Shown here: piece after piece, positions 641-18,571 of the stretch | How the letters are laid out: every line of letters begins with the position of its first letter | How positions within the stretch are numbered: the stretch's first letter is position 1 | Virus record (IMG/VR): IMGVR_UViG_2565956624_000022 | Span: 1 to 28,080 of that record | DNA from: a virus | Lineage: Duplodnaviria > Heunggongvirae > Uroviricota > Caudoviricetes | Reading direction: 5' to 3' (one strand) | DNA: 28,080 nt | The notes under the pieces: model-generated | Seen by the model: the letters and a program-made list of their open reading frames with translations, nothing else | Told to the model about the DNA's origin: nothing | The model's database searches: none | Program-made: the position numbers and the translations under genes

Positions 641-1183
641 ATGAATTATCCAACTATCGTTGACGGCATTGATTTCAAAGAACTGGTTTTTATTACCAAC
701 AATGACCCTGTCACCGATTCATTTATGGTGGCGAAAGCATTTCGTAAGCGACATGACAACGTTGTGCGTGATGTAGAAAGAACTATCGCTGCTTGTCCTG
801 AAGAGTTTGATACAAAACTCAATTTTGAGGTTTGCTATAAAAACAATGAGTTACAGAATGGTAAGCCACAAAAATTCTATCGGCTACGTAAGGATGGGTT
901 GATGCTTTTGGTTATGTCCTACACCAAAAAAGAAGCAATGCGTATCAAAATTGCTTACATCAACGCATTCAACTGGATGTACGCCATGCTTCAGGTTGGT
1001 AATCGTCAATTTGAAGAAGAGCGAAATTCCGTAATGCTGGAGTACATGAAAGAGAAGGATGTTGCCAGCATGTCAGGTCGCCTGCTTAATCGCTGGGGAA
1101 AAATTAAGAAGCCTCAGCTACTGGCGAGAATTGAACGCCTTGAACAGCACGGGCAAACCGTAATCCCCGGACTCACTAATTAA
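641..1183 (+). CDS. Rha-family phage regulatory protein
   Basis: 180 aa; N-terminal KRHDNVVRDVERTI signature typical of the Phage_pRha domain; sits between lysis cassette and terminase. Confidence 0.7.
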   Translation: MNYPTIVDGIDFKELVFITNNDPVTDSFMVAKAFRKRHDNVVRDVERTIAACPEEFDTKLNFEVCYKNNELQNGKPQKFYRLRKDGLMLLVMSYTKKEAMRIKIAYINAFNWMYAMLQVGNRQFEEERNSVMLEYMKEKDVASMSGRLLNRWGKIKKPQLLARIERLEQHGQTVIPGLTN

Positions 1184-10858: not shown

Positions 10859-12345
10859 GCACAATCCCTTTATCTGTAGATTTTAATATCACGCCCAATG
10901 TCGTTACGCCTGCCGGTTCTGCGGTTGATGCTAACGGCCTGATGTTGACCGATAACGAGCTTATCCCGGTTGGCGCGGTACAATCTTATTACTCCTCATC
11001 TGATGTATCAGCTTTGATGGGGAGTGAATCGAAAGAATTCCTCGCAGCACAACAGTATTTTAACGGATACGAAAACTCATCCGTTATTCCTGGTGAACTG
11101 CTGATGTATCGTATTGTTACTTCACCAGTGGCTGGGTATCTTCTGTCCGGCAACCTGAAAGGTGTTTCCCTGGCAACACTGAAAGCGATTCCAGCAGGAA
11201 CAATCACCCTTTCCATTGACGGTGAGTCGACTACCAGCACATCAATTGATTTGTCCACAGCCACAAGTTTTAGTGACATTGCGTCCAAGTTGCAGGTTGG
11301 AATTGGTGCAAGCAAGGTGGTGGTTGAATGGTTGCCAATCGCTAACCGATTCATCATTCGCTCTGCCACTACTGGCGCAGAGAGTGAAGTGTCTTATGCC
11401 TCTGCTGGCGCTCTGGCTACCGGCTTGTTACTGACGCAGGATTCCGCAGCGATTGTATCACCGGGTTCTGATGCGGTAACTCTGACAGACACGATGAACA
11501 ACATCATCAACGTCAACCAGAACTGGATCCTGTTTAACTCGCTGGTCGAACTGACCGATGACCAGAAAACAGAATTGTGCGCATGGGCAAGCAGCAGTAA
11601 AAACCGATTTGGATATGTTGTTCACGACACCACTTCAGCAGGAACGGTAGCCAATAATGCCAATTGCTTTGTGCAGAAAGTGGTTGTGGCAAATGGCTAC
11701 GAGAACATTTTTCCGGTGTACGGAACATACCTGTATAGCGTTACAGCACTGGCATATGCTGCATCCGTGGATTTTGCACGCACCAATGGGCGTATCTCGT
11801 TCAAGTTCCGTGGATTTTCAGGGTTAGCACCCAACGTCAGCGATCTGGCTACCGCTCAGGCACTGAAGTCAAACGGTTACAACTTCTACGGCTCATACAG
11901 CCTGAACAAAACAATGGCGCAGTACGCATCTGATGGTGCCATTACTGGCAAGTTTGTATGGCTGGACAGTTTTATTAATCAGGTATGGATTAATGCCAAT
12001 CTGGTTAGTGCTTTTGCCAACCTGTTCACCAATAACCAGTCTTACCCGTTCAATGATACAGGATACGGCGCAGTGTCTGCCGCTGTTATTGATGTTGCTG
12101 AACAGGCTCTCAATTTCGGGGCTATTCAGCGTGGCGTGAAACTTGATAATGCGCAAACCAGAATTGTGAATAACACAGTTGGAAAAGATATCTCATCGAC
12201 GCTGTATTCACAGGGCTGGTTCCTGTACATCCCGACACAGTCAGGCTCTGCACGCATTGAGCGCGACCTGAAAGGTGTCATTTTCTATTATGTCGATGGT
12301 CAGTTAATCCAGTCCATCACAATGTCCTCAACCGCGATTTTATAA
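10855..12345 (+). CDS. Putative tail sheath protein
   Basis: 496 aa; ATGA-coupled; largest protein at the head of the tail module, followed by a small tube-like protein, chaperone pair and tape measure. Confidence 0.5.
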   Translation: MSTIPLSVDFNITPNVVTPAGSAVDANGLMLTDNELIPVGAVQSYYSSSDVSALMGSESKEFLAAQQYFNGYENSSVIPGELLMYRIVTSPVAGYLLSGNLKGVSLATLKAIPAGTITLSIDGESTTSTSIDLSTATSFSDIASKLQVGIGASKVVVEWLPIANRFIIRSATTGAESEVSYASAGALATGLLLTQDSAAIVSPGSDAVTLTDTMNNIINVNQNWILFNSLVELTDDQKTELCAWASSSKNRFGYVVHDTTSAGTVANNANCFVQKVVVANGYENIFPVYGTYLYSVTALAYAASVDFARTNGRISFKFRGFSGLAPNVSDLATAQALKSNGYNFYGSYSLNKTMAQYASDGAITGKFVWLDSFINQVWINANLVSAFANLFTNNQSYPFNDTGYGAVSAAVIDVAEQALNFGAIQRGVKLDNAQTRIVNNTVGKDISSTLYSQGWFLYIPTQSGSARIERDLKGVIFYYVDGQLIQSITMSSTAIL

Positions 12346-13198: not shown

Positions 13199-13413
13199 AG
13201 TACCCGTTCATGGAGGAGGAGACTCTTCCGGCAAAACTCGTTAGCCCCGTAAACGTCACACCATCAATGAACGCCATTATCTGTTCAGGAAAAGCCACTT
13301 ATACCGATTTGCAGGAACGGTTATCTGTTCGTGATATGTATAACCTTCTGGAAATTATCTCGGTGGAATCATTTAACAAGCGGGTCTGGAATAAACATCA
13401 GGAGCAGCGATGA
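13177..13413 (+). CDS. -1 frame extension of the tail assembly chaperone (gpGT-like product)
   Basis: The -1 frame is open from the slippery site at 13174-13180 to 13413 and abuts the tape measure start; classic G/GT arrangement. Confidence 0.45.
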   Translation, partial: FNDRRRVKYPFMEEETLPAKLVSPVNVTPSMNAIICSGKATYTDLQERLSVRDMYNLLEIISVESFNKRVWNKHQEQR

Positions 13414-15224
13414 TTATCAATGAGTTGGCCTACAAGGTCACAATTAAGGCCGATGAATTCCTGAATGGAAAACGGAAAGTAAAAGATGAAGTTAGTAAAT
13501 TAAACAAAGATCTTTCCAGGGCTGAGAAGGAAAGGCTAAAGGAACTTGAAAAACAGCGGCAGGAAACGGAGAGGTTCGGTAAAACCGCTGTTTCAGCTTT
13601 CCGCAACGTGACAACAGCAGCCGCTGGATTTTTGGGAATTGGCGCCGGGTTGTATGGAATTAAGCAACTTTTTACATCTACTGCCAACGAAATTGTGAGG
13701 GCCAGCCAACAGGCCAAGTTTTTCGACTCTGATGTTAATAAGATGTTTGGTGTTCAGCGGGGATTTCGCCAGGCTGGTCTTAACGGTGACTCGTTCATTT
13801 CATCTTCTGGGAATGCCAGAATGGCTTTGGCAAATATTGCCGATCCGACTGTTATGGGAGGGCTTACTGGCGCTGCCCAAAATTTGCTGATTCTTGGAGC
13901 TCGTACCGGATTAGATATCAATAAGCTCGGCGACCCAAACAAGGCTCTTGCTGAGTTTTCTCGCTATGGCAAGACTCATTCTCAAGAAAACCTGATGCAG
14001 GTGATGGCTGCCGCAGGGTTCGATCCGACAGATGCCGCTAAAATAAAATCAGGGGAACTTAAGCAGCTTGTCGATTCAGAAACAAAGAAATCCCGTATTA
14101 CAGCACAGCAGGTAAAAGAGCAGGAGAAGGTTGCTGCCACTCTTGGGCAACTTGATTCAGAGTTTTCCCGATTAAAGCAAAATTTAGCCATGGCATTCGC
14201 TCCAGACGTTATTGACGGGATGAAGGCTTTTGGTTCCTGGATTGAGAAACATCATGGCGACATCATTGGCTTTTTCAATGACGCCGGGAATATGACTAAG
14301 CAATTCACAAAGGCAGTTGGTGGTGCGGAAGAGGCTCTGAAGCTATTGGCAGCAGCATATGTAGGAAGCAAACTTACAGGCGGCGCCCTTCCTCCATGGT
14401 TAGCAGGGTTAATAGCATATGGTTTGTATCTCTACAATGACAGGGAAAACATTGAGGGTGCTGCTAAAGGATCGTTTGATTACTCTAAGCGTGAACTTGG
14501 AGATACCATGCGCAGCATGGGGTTTGATACCGATTTTGGGCGTAGAGGCGATGAGATTTATGGCAATAACATTCAGCCAGATATCCCTCTCCCTGACGGA
14601 GTAAAGCCAGTAAGCATGGATTCTCTCCTTGATGCCATTCGTGAGGTGGAATCGAGCGGTGGCAAAAAACTTTATAGCCCGAAAGGTGCTGTTGGTCCGT
14701 ATCAGTTCATGAAGGATACTGCCATAGCGTACGGGTTAAAGGTCGGGGATGGGATTGATGAGCGTCTTGATGAAGTGAAATCTCGCGCTGCTGCTGAAAG
14801 GTTCATGAGGGATTTGCTAAAGCACTATAAAGGCAATGTTAACCATGCGCTGATGGCTTACAACTGGGGGATGGGCAATGTAGACAAAAAGTTAAAATAC
14901 ATATCCAGTACCGGGTTTGATTCACCATCATCCAAATACTGGAACACCCTGCCGAAAGAAACGCGAGAATATGTACCAAAGATTCGCGCCGCTCTTAATG
15001 CAAAAGAAAACGAGACGCTGGCTTACTATCAGCAGCAGCAACGCATCGCCTCAACACCAAACCAGACAACATCAAAAATTGACAACAGCCGTAGCAGCAG
15101 TACAACTATTGGCACGGTAGTTGTTAACAGTAACCCGACAACAGTTGATGCTCTTACCAGAAGCGTCAATCAGCAAGTTAGCCGGGCGTCAACAAACGCG
15201 GCATTTTCCAGTGCAATGCCTTAG
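13410..15224 (+). CDS. Tail tape measure protein with C-terminal lytic transglycosylase (SLT) domain
   Basis: 604 aa; coiled-coil N-terminus (EKERLKELEKQRQETERFGK); SLT-like motifs (AIREVESSGG...GAVGPYQFM...ALMAYNWGMG). Confidence 0.65.
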   Translation: MIINELAYKVTIKADEFLNGKRKVKDEVSKLNKDLSRAEKERLKELEKQRQETERFGKTAVSAFRNVTTAAAGFLGIGAGLYGIKQLFTSTANEIVRASQQAKFFDSDVNKMFGVQRGFRQAGLNGDSFISSSGNARMALANIADPTVMGGLTGAAQNLLILGARTGLDINKLGDPNKALAEFSRYGKTHSQENLMQVMAAAGFDPTDAAKIKSGELKQLVDSETKKSRITAQQVKEQEKVAATLGQLDSEFSRLKQNLAMAFAPDVIDGMKAFGSWIEKHHGDIIGFFNDAGNMTKQFTKAVGGAEEALKLLAAAYVGSKLTGGALPPWLAGLIAYGLYLYNDRENIEGAAKGSFDYSKRELGDTMRSMGFDTDFGRRGDEIYGNNIQPDIPLPDGVKPVSMDSLLDAIREVESSGGKKLYSPKGAVGPYQFMKDTAIAYGLKVGDGIDERLDEVKSRAAAERFMRDLLKHYKGNVNHALMAYNWGMGNVDKKLKYISSTGFDSPSSKYWNTLPKETREYVPKIRAALNAKENETLAYYQQQQRIASTPNQTTSKIDNSRSSSTTIGTVVVNSNPTTVDALTRSVNQQVSRASTNAAFSSAMP

Positions 15225-15281
15225 TCACCTGTAACGTTTTCTCTGTTTGTGCCTGTTGACTGAAGTCGGACGGTAAAAATG

Positions 15282-15307
15282 AAAACCCACCGTCAGGTGG
15301 GTTTTTT
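15282..15307. terminator. Bidirectional Rho-independent terminator
   Basis: AAAA-ACCCACC-GTCA-GGTGGGT-TTTTT: A-tract / perfect 7-bp stem / T-tract; between the convergent tape measure (+) and Mnt-like (-) genes, overlapping the latter's stop codon. Confidence 0.7.
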
Positions 15308-15613
15308 GTTTAGCAGTTCTCTCAACTTTTCGTTCTGCTCTCTGAACTTTTCCTGTATTTCTTTTTGCATGGCGATAACCTGGGCTTGAAGTTGAACTAG
15401 CGCATCAACATTTAGCGGAACCGAGACGCTGTTGATTTTATCTGCTATTTCCCCAAGAGTATTTTCTGCATTCAAGGCATCTTCCAGTATCTGCACAATC
15501 TCTGAGTTCATTGATCTGCCGTTTCGTTTGGCTCGTTCAGCTATAGCATCTCGCATCCCGTCAGGGAAACGCACAACAAACTTTTCGTAATCTTTAACCT
15601 GCTTTTCAGCCAT
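15293..15613 (-). CDS. mnt: Ribbon-helix-helix repressor, P22 Mnt-like
   Basis: 106 aa; N-terminal FVVRFPDGMRDAIAERAKRNGRSMNSEIVQILEDAL matches the Arc/Mnt RHH signature (NGRSMNSE); C-terminal coiled coil; divergent from an Arc-like/Ant pair as in P22 immI. Confidence 0.7.
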   Translation of the reverse strand: MAEKQVKDYEKFVVRFPDGMRDAIAERAKRNGRSMNSEIVQILEDALNAENTLGEIADKINSVSVPLNVDALVQLQAQVIAMQKEIQEKFREQNEKLRELLNKKPT

Positions 15614-15632
15614 AACATCACCTCAAAAAAAA

Positions 15633-15693
15633 CAATGATGGCATATTGCTATTTATATTCAATGATGGCATATTGCTTTCAAGGCATAATGCC
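15633..15693. promoter_or_regulatory. Divergent promoter/operator region
   Basis: Two identical 18-bp direct repeats CAATGATGGCATATTGCT (15633-15650 and 15660-15677) plus an 11-bp palindrome GGCATAATGCC (15683-15693) sharing the TGGCAT half-site, between two divergent RHH genes. Confidence 0.6.
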
Positions 15694-15715
15694 ATTACGT
15701 AAAAAGGAGTGATCA

Positions 15716-15877
15716 ATGGAAAAGAATGAAGTGAAGACAACTCTTCGGTATCCGTACCGTTTTAAGGAGGAGGTGAAACGCATCGCTAAGGAAGAGGGGA
15801 TGTCAGAAAACTCAGTGTTGGTTCAGGGACTTGCTTGGTGGTTGAAGTACCGGGAGAAAATGCGGAATGCTCTCTAA
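15716..15877 (+). CDS. arc: Small ribbon-helix-helix regulator, P22 Arc-like
   Basis: 53 aa (MEKNEVKTTLRYPYRFKEEVKRIAKEEGMSENSVLVQGLAWWLKYREKMRNAL); AAGGAG 7 nt upstream; beta-strand then two helices as in Arc; directly upstream of an antirepressor; too short for the ORF track. Confidence 0.55.
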   Translation: MEKNEVKTTLRYPYRFKEEVKRIAKEEGMSENSVLVQGLAWWLKYREKMRNAL

Positions 15878-15948
15878 AAATAACGAAGCCCCGACAGCGG
15901 GAACTGGCGAGGCTTCTACATCAACAAATCTGATCGGGAAATATTGAC

Positions 15949-16827
15949 ATGAAAAGTATAGCAAAGGCACAAAACGATTTCACCATCTTCAAATTCGGCG
16001 ACAGTGAAATCCGCGTCATCAACAAGTGCGGTGAGCCGTGGTTTGTAGCAAAAGATGTTTGTGATGCTTTAACCCTGACTAACTCACGCAAGGCGCTTAC
16101 TGCACTTGATGACGATGAGAAGGGAGTAACTTTAAGTTACACCCTTGGTGGTGAGCAGAATTTAAGCATTGTGAGCGAATCAGGTATGTATACATTGGTT
16201 TTGCGCTGCCGCGATGCCGTCAATAAAGGTTCAGTCCCGCACAAATTCCGCAAGTGGGTAACAGCAGAAGTTCTGCCTTCAATTCGCAAATATGGCGAGT
16301 ATGTGAAAGGCAAGAAAACCACAGTTGAGGAAAGAACACCGCTACGCGATGCAGTAAACATGCTGGTAGGAAAGAAAGGACTTCGCTATGACGATGCATA
16401 CAATATGGTTCATCAGCGTTTTGGTATTGACAGCATTGATGAACTTTCAATTGAACAAATCCCGCAAGCCGTAGAGTACATCCACAGGGTAGTGCTTGAA
16501 GGTGAGTTCATTGGCAAGCAAGAGAAGAAAGCAAACGAGCTTTCTGCAAAAGAAGCAAACAGCCTTGTATGGTTATGGGATTATGCCAACCGCTCACAGG
16601 CATTATTCCGCGAACTGTATCCGGCATTAAAACAAATTCAATCGAACTATTCCGGCAGATGCTACGACTACGGCCATGAGTTTTCGTATGTTATCGGAAT
16701 GGCGAGAGACATTTTAATAAAACACACACGAGATGTTGATATCAATGAGCCAGACGGACCAACGAATCTTTCCGCATGGATGAGACTTAAGAATAAAGAA
16801 TTACCTCCTTCAGTACATAACTACTGA
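15949..16827 (+). CDS. ant: Antirepressor, Bro-N domain family (Ant-like)
   Basis: 292 aa; N-terminal [30 protein letters not shown] is a classic Bro-N signature; downstream of the Arc-like gene. Confidence 0.8.
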
Positions 16828-16845
16828 CAGATAAACAACGCAACG

Positions 16846-16869
16846 ACCCAGCTTCGGCTGGGTTTTTTT
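16846..16869 (+). terminator. Rho-independent terminator (copy 1 of a repeated terminator)
   Basis: ACCCAGC-TTCG-GCTGGGT followed by TTTTTTT; near-identical to the terminator at 17715-17739. Confidence 0.7.
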
Positions 16870-16937
16870 ATACCCAAAATTCACCGTGTCCACGCTTAGG
16901 TAATGAGCTTGAAGGAGAGCACTACACAAAAAGTGTA

Positions 16938-17483
16938 GTGCAAAAAGCGAACAAAACTTCGATGGTTATCATTGAGATGTCAATCAAGCAAGCATTGCGA
17001 GTTGCCGCTCGCGAGTCAAAAGCCGTTCGCCGCTCACTGGTAGACCAACTTGAAAGTATGCAAGAAGCGCACATTAAAAGCGGTAAATCAGCGAGTGGAC
17101 TTGTTGAGTATCGTCAAGCGCGAACATTGAAAATGACGGTTGAAGCTGTTACCAATCTGTTCGATCTGATGCCAAATCTTGCGCCTGAGGCAAAGCAGAC
17201 AGCGGCAGCAAGTATAATCAACCCGCTCGTTGGTTTTAATGCAATACCTCTTCCGGCAATAGAAGAGCATTACTACTCAGCAGGGGAGGTTGCAGAGCAG
17301 CTTGGAGTAACGGCCAACAAGATTGGTCGCATTGCTAACGCAAACAACATCAAAACTGAGCAGTACGGGAAGTTCTTCCTGGATAAATCGGCGCATTCCA
17401 GCAAACAGGTGGAAGCATTCCGCTACAATGCGGAAGGTGTTAAAGCACTACAACACCTGATTCATGGGAGTAATGTTGCATAA
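16938..17483 (+). CDS. Hypothetical protein, possible DNA-binding protein
   Basis: 181 aa; GTG start at 16938 (AAGGAG at 16912-16917; alternative ATG at 16962); C-terminal stretch YSAGEVAEQLGVTANKIGRIANANNIKTEQYGKF looks HTH-like; no family recognised. Confidence 0.55.
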   Translation: MQKANKTSMVIIEMSIKQALRVAARESKAVRRSLVDQLESMQEAHIKSGKSASGLVEYRQARTLKMTVEAVTNLFDLMPNLAPEAKQTAAASIINPLVGFNAIPLPAIEEHYYSAGEVAEQLGVTANKIGRIANANNIKTEQYGKFFLDKSAHSSKQVEAFRYNAEGVKALQHLIHGSNVA

Positions 17484-17704
17484 TGGCAAAGAAAAAATAT
17501 GGCATTATGCCGCCAAGAATCAAAGGAAGAGCCAGGGTAAAAGGCGATGCTGGGAGATATCACATTCTTGGTGTTTTGTGGCATGAGAGAGCTTTAATTT
17601 TAAGCAGACCTCATGGGTACATTGAAAAGGTATCTATAGATAGAATTGAGATTCTTCCCCTTACTCCTGAAGAAGAAGAAACGTACGGACTTTTTGATAA
17701 CTAG
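17483..17704 (+). CDS. Hypothetical small basic protein
   Basis: 73 aa; start overlaps the upstream stop (TAATG); basic N-terminus; no family recognised. Confidence 0.5.
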   Translation: MAKKKYGIMPPRIKGRARVKGDAGRYHILGVLWHERALILSRPHGYIEKVSIDRIEILPLTPEEEETYGLFDN

Positions 17705-17714
17705 CCAATTCACT

Positions 17715-17739
17715 AAACCCAGCTTCGGCTGGGTTTTTT
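17715..17739 (+). terminator. Rho-independent terminator (copy 2)
   Basis: AACCCAGC-TTCG-GCTGGGTT followed by TTTTTT; same stem-loop as 16846-16869. Confidence 0.7.
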
Positions 17740-17755
17740 GTTTAATGGAGAGTAG

Positions 17756-18571
17756 ATGGGCATAATCGATTTAAACACAGCAGACATATTCAATGCTATC
17801 GGTGGCGGCTCTCCGCTTTCGATTATCGACAGCGTTCTGCATCCCCAGTATGTGATTCGTGACAGGGAAACTGGCGAGGTTGCTCTTGAGTTCAGTGGTA
17901 TGGCATCCGTGCAGCCAAGTGGCAGGGCGCAAATAACAAACGCTCCGGTGGAGAAAGGGAAATACCAGTCCATCAACAAAGTTAAAGAACCCGCCAGGGT
18001 AAGATGCGCAATCATCGTAAATGGTCTTACTGGTTTTTCCGGCAATATCCCGAATATTTTCGATCTCACATTCACAAGCCAGAACAGCACGCTGAACACA
18101 ATCAAAACGATGCTGTCCTCTGCAAAAACATACGATATTGAAACGCCAAAGGAAACTCTGGAGAGTTTCGACCTTGTTGACCACTATTACGAAGTTAACT
18201 CTCAAAAAGGGGTGACTCTTCTGACGGTTTATCTTGATTTTCAGGAGGTCATTCAGCAAATGGAAGTTATTCTCTCTGGATCTCAGTCAGAACAGAAGCC
18301 AACGGATAACAATAAGTCACAGGGTGATGTAGGAGTTGATCCGCAAATAACCAATGGCGGAGCCAGGGAATCTACTGTCGATGAGCTAAGTAAATCATGG
18401 TCATCACTGAAGTCATCTGTTGGCGAAATCACTGGAAAAATCTCCGGCACAATAAAGACTGAATTTCAGAGTGCTCTTGATACGGTGTCTAAACCAATAC
18501 TCGAAGTTACAAACAGCGCAACAAAAAAAGCGGCAGATATTGCAAAAAATATAGTTAAGGCGAGTACATGA
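17756..18571 (+). CDS. Putative tail/baseplate protein
   Basis: 271 aa; GGAGAG RBS; first gene of the distal tail module; position-based. Confidence 0.45.
   Translation: MGIIDLNTADIFNAIGGGSPLSIIDSVLHPQYVIRDRETGEVALEFSGMASVQPSGRAQITNAPVEKGKYQSINKVKEPARVRCAIIVNGLTGFSGNIPNIFDLTFTSQNSTLNTIKTMLSSAKTYDIETPKETLESFDLVDHYYEVNSQKGVTLLTVYLDFQEVIQQMEVILSGSQSEQKPTDNNKSQGDVGVDPQITNGGARESTVDELSKSWSSLKSSVGEITGKISGTIKTEFQSALDTVSKPILEVTNSATKKAADIAKNIVKAST

Follow-up and report, generated by a model that had tools for sequence, protein, structure and literature searches.

Why should a phage tail operon be interrupted by some 2.4 kb in which no virion gene can be found? The question is raised by a 28,080-nucleotide stretch of a caudoviricete genome (IMG/VR virus record IMGVR_UViG_2565956624_000022, positions 1 to 28,080; the window in what follows), where positions 15282-17739, between the tape-measure/transglycosylase gene and the first baseplate-region gene, carry two small regulators, an antirepressor gene and two further open reading frames (ORFs). 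An initial annotation, made from the letters alone, had assumed that tail morphogenesis operons are normally uninterrupted and had accordingly taken the block for acquired regulatory or anti-defense cargo and for a candidate undescribed system. The non-virion block does lie at these positions with all the parts that had been described, and the ribbon-helix-helix (RHH) repressor, the Arc-like regulator and the Bro-N protein are each recovered by Pfam or PHROG matches, as is the operator-rich region by its repeats and palindrome. The island is known in kind, however, and is not a new system: it is very probably a P22-type immunity I (immI) region, or "ant moron", situated in the late operon of a lambdoid contractile-tail prophage of Escherichia coli.

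Correspondence with the P22 immI region

In the annotated genome of P22, immI reads in the order mnt terminator, mnt (minus strand), overlapping Pant and Pmnt promoters with the operators Oarc and Omnt, arc, sar (70 nt), ant with Psar, and ant terminator, after which comes the tailspike gene. The block in the window matches this annotation part for part, and since the ant moron has already been described (PMC2629481) the claim of an undescribed system falls. Gene order, strands and spacing agree (arc and ant are separated by 71 nt, compared with 68 nt in P22), there are two small RHH repressors with an Arc of 53 amino acids (aa) in both, a terminator follows about 18 nt after ant, and the whole is embedded between virion genes in a late operon of the Q/gp23-dependent kind. 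The diagnostic components found here by sequence are a homologue of P22 Ant, a divergent Mnt-type RHH gene, an Arc-type first gene, and a sar-type sequence that spans the ant ribosome-binding site, its promoter lying within ant.

The antirepressor gene itself (ant, 15949..16827, plus strand) encodes 292 aa, with a Bro-N domain at the N terminus (Pfam, 5.6e-20) and the P22 antirepressor C-terminal domain (P22AR_C, 5.4e-29) behind it, and the protein matches PHROG 245, "anti-repressor Ant", at 3.6e-111. With P22 Ant it shares 83% identity across the C-terminal 171 aa, and with the protein annotated as anti-repressor in the P22-like phage (Lederbergvirus) Kapi1 it shares 97.9% over the whole length.

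The mnt-like gene (15293..15613, minus strand) specifies a 106-aa maintenance repressor built of an N-terminal RHH domain and a longer, helix-rich C-terminal tail. It is recognized by the Pfam Arc family (1.6e-19) and by the structure of the Mnt repressor (PDB 1mnt, 3.2e-6), and over the RHH domain it shares 47% identity with P22 Mnt (E 2e-11). The gene is monocistronic, runs into a terminator and stands divergent from arc at a distance of 102 nt, as in P22. The arc-like gene (15716..15877, plus strand) is the first of the ant operon and, at 162 nt, has the same length as that of P22. Its 53-aa product matches PHROG 582, "Arc-like repressor" (1.6e-10), finds Arc structures in the PDB, and is 38% identical to P22 Arc over the RHH domain (BLASTP E 3e-5).

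The 102 nt separating these two genes (15614..15715) would, judged by repeats, palindrome and position, be the equivalent of the Pant/Pmnt control region. Two identical 18-bp repeats CAATGATGGCATATTGCT stand at 15633-15650 and 15660-15677, 27 nt apart, and are followed at 15683-15693 by a perfect 11-bp palindrome, GGCATAATGCC. A candidate Pant is formed by TTGCTA (15646-15651) and CATATT (15669-15674) with 17 nt between them, and phage GF-2, whose Arc is 94% identical, keeps both the repeats and a TTGCTA-17-CATWWT arrangement. From this sequence pattern we infer that Pant is the TTGCTA-17-CATWWT element, with the repeats lying over its -35 and -10 hexamers and the palindrome at the start site.

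A sar-type antisense RNA, which we take as present on the strength of its sequence, would be made from the minus strand at 15875..15948 and would cover the ant ribosome-binding site, with a 5' hairpin and a terminator hairpin (~15885-15916). The Rfam sar model (RF00262) matches 15881-15947 on the minus strand along its full length (1-68 of 68; 28.5 bits, E 0.0068), and the arc-ant intercistronic DNA aligns with the annotated sar of P22, the terminator stem being conserved. The same model matches at the same position, on the minus strand between a small regulator and ant, in five other loci: Kapi1 (72.4 bits), EC16 (42.2), GF-2 (32.1), TW10590 (28.7) and KCJ3K291 (28.5). The consensus fold of the six sequences consists of the two expected hairpins, in which six pairs are changed on both sides, and the window sequence has a minimum free energy of -24.9 kcal/mol (z = -4.1). 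A Psar-like promoter (15983-15955; GTGAAA, 17 nt, TG-TATACT) lies on the minus strand at the very start of ant, inside its first 35 nt. At ant +7 to +35 it occupies the offset of the annotated P22 Psar (15097-15125, with the P22 ant start at 15091), and its -10 block TTGCTATACT is conserved with P22.

The two regions also differ in several respects. Mnt has 106 aa here as against 83 aa in P22 and carries another C-terminal tail; the putative operators (a pair of identical 18-bp direct repeats plus a palindrome) share no sequence relationship with Oarc and Omnt; and the flanking genes belong to the tape measure and baseplate of a contractile tail, where P22 has gene 16/sieA and the tailspike gene. 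No sieA is present. Closer in setting is GF-2, which has the same tail backbone and the same junction, with transglycosylase/tape-measure gene, mnt-like gene (minus strand), arc, ant and baseplate genes in that order; besides Arc, the N terminus of Mnt (72% identical) and Ant (59%) can be compared. GF-2 differs in having extra genes on the left side, in lacking the remnant gene and the 73-aa ORF described below, in an annotated overlap of arc and ant, and in its host genus. An ImmI comprising Ant, Mnt and Arc has also been noted in the GF-2-like Edwardsiella myovirus Edno5 (PMC6372524). In Stx-converting and lambda-like siphophages (phi330, 2851, YYZ-2008 and 1717), parts of the mnt-arc-ant module are about 90% identical in nucleotide sequence, and the module likewise lies inside the tail cluster, between minor tail genes, although the tail is non-contractile and lambda-like, the insertion point is another and the Ant variant is different (334 aa). 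The premise that tail operons are normally uninterrupted is contradicted by these siphophages, by GF-2 and by P22, where immI stands between genes 16 and 9.

Several observations weigh against the identification as immI or limit how far it reaches. The Pfam Arc match of the 53-aa protein falls under the cut-off (17.5 versus 20.4 bits), and the Rfam score of the sar match is lower than the gathering score of the family, 43 bits. A consensus scan of the control region returned no sigma-70 promoter above threshold, Pant and Pmnt being placed only by position and by conservation in GF-2; the repeats and palindrome there are putative operators, and the protein that binds them may be either the Mnt-like or the Arc-like one. 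The N-terminal half of Ant is Bro-N, whereas P22 Ant has P22_AR_N, and because the one domain replaces the other the target range of Ant, and even its mode of action, could differ. Anatomy and homology are what was observed, and from them we infer operator binding, the binding of repressors by Ant, expression of sar and terminator read-through.

Terminators and the genes behind ant

Between positions 12000 and 21000 we found 18 terminator-like sites, where 7.5 +/- 2.6 are expected, and the three best of them (15282-15305, 16845-16864 and 17715-17736) belong to the island, with hairpins of -14 to -17 kcal/mol and z = -3.8 to -5.2 relative to shuffles. The left edge of the immI block is a bidirectional intrinsic terminator (15282..15305, both strands; -17.1 kcal/mol on plus, -15.1 on minus), which closes the tape-measure transcript in one direction and the mnt-like transcript in the other and has the mnt-like stop codon inside its loop. 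The terminator after ant (16845..16871, plus strand; -14.1 kcal/mol, U7 tail) has the stem ACCCAGCTTCGGCTGGGT, which is also the stem of the right-edge terminator (17715..17742, plus strand; -15.6 kcal/mol). Two strong terminators had been proposed as the bounds of the block; both borders are indeed strong, and the count has to be raised to three forward terminators with a fourth hairpin in the antisense RNA.

The presence of terminators in the middle of a late operon does not by itself break the operon. In lambdoid phages this operon is read by a Q-modified polymerase (gp23-modified in P22) that ignores terminators, and P22 transcribes through immI as far as gene 9 (PMC2629481). Because the prophage encodes Q, and a polymerase modified by it would read through, the terminators would insulate the cassette in the lysogen and not split the operon.

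They also appear to mark where the pieces were put together. The right border of the hotspot, made up of the right-edge terminator and the baseplate ribosome-binding site TTTTTGTTTAATGGAGAGTAGATG, is kept whatever cargo stands upstream, and in Z1323CEC0001, TW10590 and E423 the ant terminator leads straight into the baseplate gene. In the window the same terminator stem, at 16846 and at 17717, brackets an insertion that carries the remnant gene and the 73-aa ORF; identical stems flanking an insertion suggest recombination at terminators, which seem to serve as recombination joints between modules. The left (15283-15312) and right (17715-17744) border terminators are themselves 87% identical over 30 nt, with compensatory differences in stem and loop only, and stem variants swap at the right border among relatives, SC407 having the left-type variant there.

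The insertion corresponds to what had been called a two-gene cassette of unknown function, a description that holds for the 73-aa ORF and fails for the gene in front of it. The latter (16893..17483, plus strand) is a 5'-truncated remnant of a 242-aa antirepressor-family gene, as revealed by DNA and protein alignments and by its PGAP annotation as a pseudogene with a missing N terminus. Its ORF at 16938-17483 (181 aa) matches PHROG 1726, "anti-repressor" (9.7e-81), over profile positions 76-264 only. It has lost the first 52 codons together with the native upstream region, and the ant terminator is followed instead by some 35 nt of unrelated sequence; homology to full-length copies begins at 16903 and only residues 53-242 are encoded. 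Full-length members of the PHROG 1726 family have two domains in about 242 aa, and in the remnant the N-terminal one (model residues 17-85) is cut at residue 52. We regard the gene as a broken, probably inactive copy of a second antirepressor-family gene.

The family to which it belongs runs to more than 1,000 clusters in Enterobacterales, one member having a Rha N-terminal domain instead, and the P22-like phage JEP4 carries a 241-aa "KilA" gene together with the 73-aa ORF as a pair in its own immI region, between a Rha gene and mnt. The predicted structure of a full-length relative, 95% identical (predicted local distance difference test score, pLDDT, of 71), begins with a beta-alpha domain, continues in long helices and ends in a winged helix. 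Searched against a library of viral folds the model finds antirepressor and KilAC proteins (E down to 2.9e-10), and against the PDB it gives weak winged-helix matches (RacA/MerR/Xis) to the C-terminal domain only. Pfam has no match for the remnant, for the full-length relative or for the 73-aa ORF.

The 73-aa ORF (17483..17704, plus strand) starts on the stop codon of the remnant (ATAATG) and matches PHROG 4977 (5e-54); its close relatives make up only 8 clusters, from E. coli and Salmonella. NCBIfam and PADLOC contain no match to it, and its low-confidence model (pLDDT 63, a small beta-sheet and helix) finds nothing in the PDB below E 0.3. In relatives a frameshift in the preceding A-run alters the first ~19 residues while the DNA is conserved, the protein core beginning at about residue 20. 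The start of the ORF (17483-17530) also holds ATGGCATTATGCC, the same sequence as the operator palindrome at 15683-15695. We considered this 13-nt copy inside the gene (17499-17511) as a remote operator and judged the match to be probably coincidental: it travels with the trailing cassette in phages that have unrelated repressors (JEP4 and STEC299) and is mutated in EC16, and the remote-operator reading was dropped on these grounds.

Sixteen nucleotides past the truncation joint, the remnant contains a perfect in-frame hairpin or palindrome (16919..16941, plus strand), GCACTACAC AAAAA GTGTAGTGC. The stem is kept in four sequence classes, covering 86 loci and 19 distinct sequences (among them L006, L011, L014 and L039-L118 in our numbering of related loci), by paired substitutions that change amino acids, for example His/Val, Thr/Gly and Phe/Lys as reverse-complement codons, and it has survived at least three sets of such compensatory changes. 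Analysis of the covariation gave 96.7% of cells paired and five of the nine pairs changed on both sides, with no G-U intermediates, and a score that 0 of 500 shuffles reached. Elsewhere in the window the half-site GCACTACAC shows no enrichment, which leaves the idea of the hairpin as one of an operator set without support. A second, independently truncated copy of the gene, of 168 aa, was seen in a different, siphovirus-type prophage (L119, 3900-4010; Logan contig ERR212609_74), within a cluster of morons that separates the tail assembly chaperone gene from the tape-measure gene. This copy is likewise broken just upstream of the hairpin, which is there tandemly duplicated. One can imagine that the trailing cassette is more than debris, and that the hairpin is an uncharacterized RNA or DNA control element driving or stabilizing a short C-terminal isoform together with the 73-aa protein. 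We are skeptical of this proposal; if it were true, the trailing cassette would be a separate small mobile regulatory or anti-immunity unit riding in ant morons.

The prophage and its cargo junction

The window is 100% identical to a prophage in E. coli FDAARGOS_1288, inserted between ybhB and ybhC, the lambda attachment site. This prophage has genes for integrase, RecT, Ral, SieB, a LexA-family CI, Cro and CII as well as replication and nin genes. Also present are a Q-family antiterminator and two tRNAs, a lysis cassette and Rha, and the terminase, head, contractile-tail and gtrABC genes. The host element is, in short, a lambdoid E. coli prophage with a contractile tail. Its resident CI (WP_000428318.1) is a C2-type repressor of the LexA family, 40% identical to P22 C2. 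When the tail backbone was searched by megablast against isolated phages, Vibrio phage IKEMa6-1 (70%) was the sole match, so the lineage is known mainly from prophages and from the GF-2 group.

To the left of the island the backbone ends with a tape-measure-like tail protein that bears an SLT lytic transglycosylase domain (13410..15224, plus strand; Pfam SLT 2.3e-20; PHROG 2013, "lytic tail protein", 2e-191). To the right it resumes with the first baseplate-region gene, encoding a Dit-like protein of 271 aa (17756..18571, plus strand; Pfam Dit_like below cut-off; PHROG 1830), next to which is a baseplate plug gene (Pam3_gp18 plug match, 1.7e-24). In every case homology to sister prophages ends on the left at 15213-15265 and begins again on the right at 17715-17717, and the immI block common to loci L002 and L035 starts at 15282/15283. 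Neither GC content nor skew sets the island apart by any base-composition anomaly.

The tail backbone is present in about 22 of 5,426 complete E. coli genomes, and in these carriers the tape-measure/baseplate junction shows at least 11 cargo configurations. They include mnt/arc/ant by itself; the same three genes joined by a 157-aa gene and one for a P63C protein; a SocA/Panacea pair, LexA-family repressor, 57-aa ORF and P22_AR_N Ant; a helix-turn-helix (HTH)-S24 repressor accompanied by a short Bro-N Ant; further pairs of the Arc family; ant genes that are split or fragmentary; and sets without any ant. The junction is empty in relatives from Arsenophonus, Izhakiella, Symbiopectobacterium and Ewingella, where the flanking genes are adjacent with 0 to ~270 nt between them, and it is filled by immI-like modules in Pluralibacter, in Yersinia nurmii and in phage GF-2. 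Two same-backbone relatives (L014, 16851-18798, and L018, 15219-16356) carry a Mnt-like gene and a divergent antirepressor-type gene 6-8 kb downstream of the baseplate start; L014 is labelled Chryseobacterium although its sequence looks enterobacterial, and L018 is from Izhakiella. Mnt and Arc are identical at the protein level across several genomes.

A moron is characterized by variable presence among phages with syntenic flanks and by a promoter and terminator of its own; here the junction is empty or variously filled among relatives, and a terminator stands at each edge. That the block is acquired and variable regulatory cargo, as the initial annotation proposed, is thus upheld: it is absent from the junction in other genera and replaced by other cargo in sister E. 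coli prophages, and its genes are not a conserved core of the tail operon, the junction being empty or otherwise filled in the relatives. Villafane et al. (2008, PMC2629481) described the ant moron of P22-like phages as an insert of the late operon that changes rapidly, and what we see is likewise a variable, non-morphogenetic insert at a fixed late-operon site, often made of ant, mnt and arc and sometimes degraded. The numbers of configurations are ten types in sixteen P22-like genomes (PMC2629481) and eleven in about twenty-two E. coli genomes here. The backbone, in contrast, is GF-2-like with a contractile tail where P22 has a short one, the insertion point is another, and the sister cargo adds SocA/Panacea pairs, P63C and DUF2513 proteins and LexA-family repressors.

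Among this sister cargo (L003, 3632-4499; L035; L037), one form of the hotspot has an antitoxin-like SocA/Panacea gene and, behind it, one of 139 aa whose product gives a weak PADLOC match to NsnC (5.9e-6). P63C-domain and DUF2513 proteins and tail-fiber fragments were also observed, as was an IS4-family element in the hit list of one strain. The SocA/Panacea genes and similar sister cargo are possible defense or addiction cargo.

Elsewhere the Mnt slot has another occupant. In some relatives and in JEP4 (L003, 4512-6591; L011, 2634-4248; L006, 1631-3257) it is taken by a LexA/C2-like repressor with HTH and S24-peptidase domains, followed by the 57-aa ORF and an antirepressor, which suggests that these units are an SOS-cleavable version of the same module. 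Since an S24 repressor fills the Mnt slot in sisters, the module can be viewed as a generic unit of repressor, small ORF and antirepressor. Antirepressors under SOS control are familiar from the LexA-repressed examples of the Gifsy prophages and from Tum of 186, and the S24 LexA-family repressor upstream of the Ant gene in sister prophages at this junction resembles them. For the module in the window no direct SOS input is predicted, because its repressor is of the RHH Mnt type without an S24 domain.

Three features outside the island were recorded in passing. Two more prophage genes are antirepressor-like: one of the Rha family (window 641-1183), which lies between the lysis genes and terminase where P22 has its rha, and one with a KilAC domain, which belongs to the nin region beyond the window (NZ_CP070007.1, 5054-5776). 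At the prophage end a cluster for O-antigen modification, with gtrA, gtrB and a gtr-specific gene (window 24407-27155 and 27604-28080, both minus strand), adjoins host ybhB. At about 24080-24364 a tail-fiber-assembly fragment, whose annotated N terminus is missing, overlaps an intact tail-fiber-assembly gene on the opposite strand and is possibly the remnant of an invertible or alternative fiber cassette.

Alternative readings and proposed working

The initial annotation had speculated on an anti-CRISPR/Aca-type or other anti-defense role, in which the small regulators would control inhibitor genes (the 181-aa or 73-aa ORF, or Ant) that block host defense. An accessory block in a hotspot that elsewhere holds a SocA/Panacea antitoxin pair and P63C proteins would suit such cargo, as would a 73-aa ORF without assignable function. 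Yet the two regulators are homologous to Arc and Mnt, have the arrangement seen in P22 immI and control a P22-type Ant, the 181-aa ORF is a truncated antirepressor-family gene, and remnant and 73-aa ORF alike sit behind the ant terminator, outside the regulated operon. Scans of the five island proteins and of four cargo proteins from relatives with PADLOC and NCBIfam gave noise only (E ~1e-3, ~15 bits), and no hint of Acr or Aca emerged from the Pfam, PHROG, NCBIfam and PADLOC scans, a dedicated Acr/Aca library not being among those searched. The gene order also differs, the regulators standing upstream of and divergent from the 292-aa Ant where an Acr/Aca locus would have a downstream autorepressor. 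As immI accounts for every intact gene but one, we consider an anti-defense role highly unlikely. Still less can be said for an RHH toxin-antitoxin or partition module, a notion that stems from database labels of the 106-aa protein: PHROG 795 and 2685 are labelled "partition protein ATPase", and Pfam FitA-like_RHH matches at 3e-08. P22 mnt bears the same label in its RefSeq record, which makes it an annotation artifact, while the RHH gene, monocistronic and closed by a terminator, has no toxin-like or ATPase gene beside it and finds its best matches among Arc/Mnt family proteins. We attach practically no weight to this explanation.

The most serious alternative accepts the anatomy and questions what the cassette still governs. 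Control over its own immunity may have been lost, with Ant acting only in trans, on other lambdoid phages that are resident or incoming, or serving as a DNA-binding regulator instead of binding repressors, or with the module tuning late read-through to the baseplate genes. The N-terminal domain of Ant is unlike that of P22 Ant, ant is degraded in several sister prophages and hence dispensable, and the prophage has two further antirepressor-like genes in Rha and the nin-region KilAC-domain protein; moreover, modulation of read-through into the tailspike gene has been proposed as a role for the ant moron of P22 (PMC2629481). Set against this are the integrity of mnt, arc, sar and ant in the window and the protein-level identity of Mnt and Arc in several genomes, which argues for maintained function, as well as the resident CI, which is C2-type, the class to which the known targets of P22 Ant belong. 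On balance we find a loss of control over the prophage's own immunity improbable and retain the reading of the island as an intact immI region.

For such a region P22 provides the precedent. In the P22 lysogen Mnt represses Pant, and on infection Arc shuts Pant after a burst of expression; sar pairs with the ant ribosome-binding site and blocks translation; Ant binds C2 non-covalently and can inactivate it, and deletion of immI lowers the frequency of lysogeny (PMC11016777, PMC12197685). By analogy, the Mnt-like repressor, made from its own promoter in the lysogen, would bind the repeated operators at 15633-15693 and keep Pant shut, with no antirepressor being produced. Upon infection, or on loss of Mnt, Pant would fire briefly to yield Arc and Ant, and Arc would then close it again. 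An antisense RNA of about 70 nt, transcribed from the promoter in the 5' end of ant, would pair with the ant ribosome-binding site and block translation of Ant, also from late read-through transcripts. Any Ant that is made is predicted to bind and inactivate repressors of the CI/C2 type, which could include the LexA-family CI of the prophage itself and would probably include the repressors of other lambdoid prophages; its action would tilt the choice between lysis and lysogeny and might induce prophages. The terminators, for their part, would prevent transcription of mnt from continuing antisense into the tape-measure gene and would keep Pant transcripts out of the baseplate genes in the lysogen, while RNA polymerase modified by Q would come from the late promoter and read through them to the baseplate and fiber genes.

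The chief value of the finding lies in a correction, as what seemed mystery cargo is the classical secondary immunity system of P22-like phages, and terminators within a lambdoid late operon are to be expected where a Q-modified polymerase ignores them. The same immI module moves among short-tailed, lambda-like and contractile-tailed phages, always into the late or tail operon. The tape-measure/baseplate junction of this lineage is a fast-changing cargo site, which collects SocA/Panacea toxin-antitoxin pairs and LexA-type repressor-antirepressor units as well. Antirepressors of this kind can cross-induce other prophages, and this is relevant to E. coli strains that harbor several lambdoid or Stx phages.

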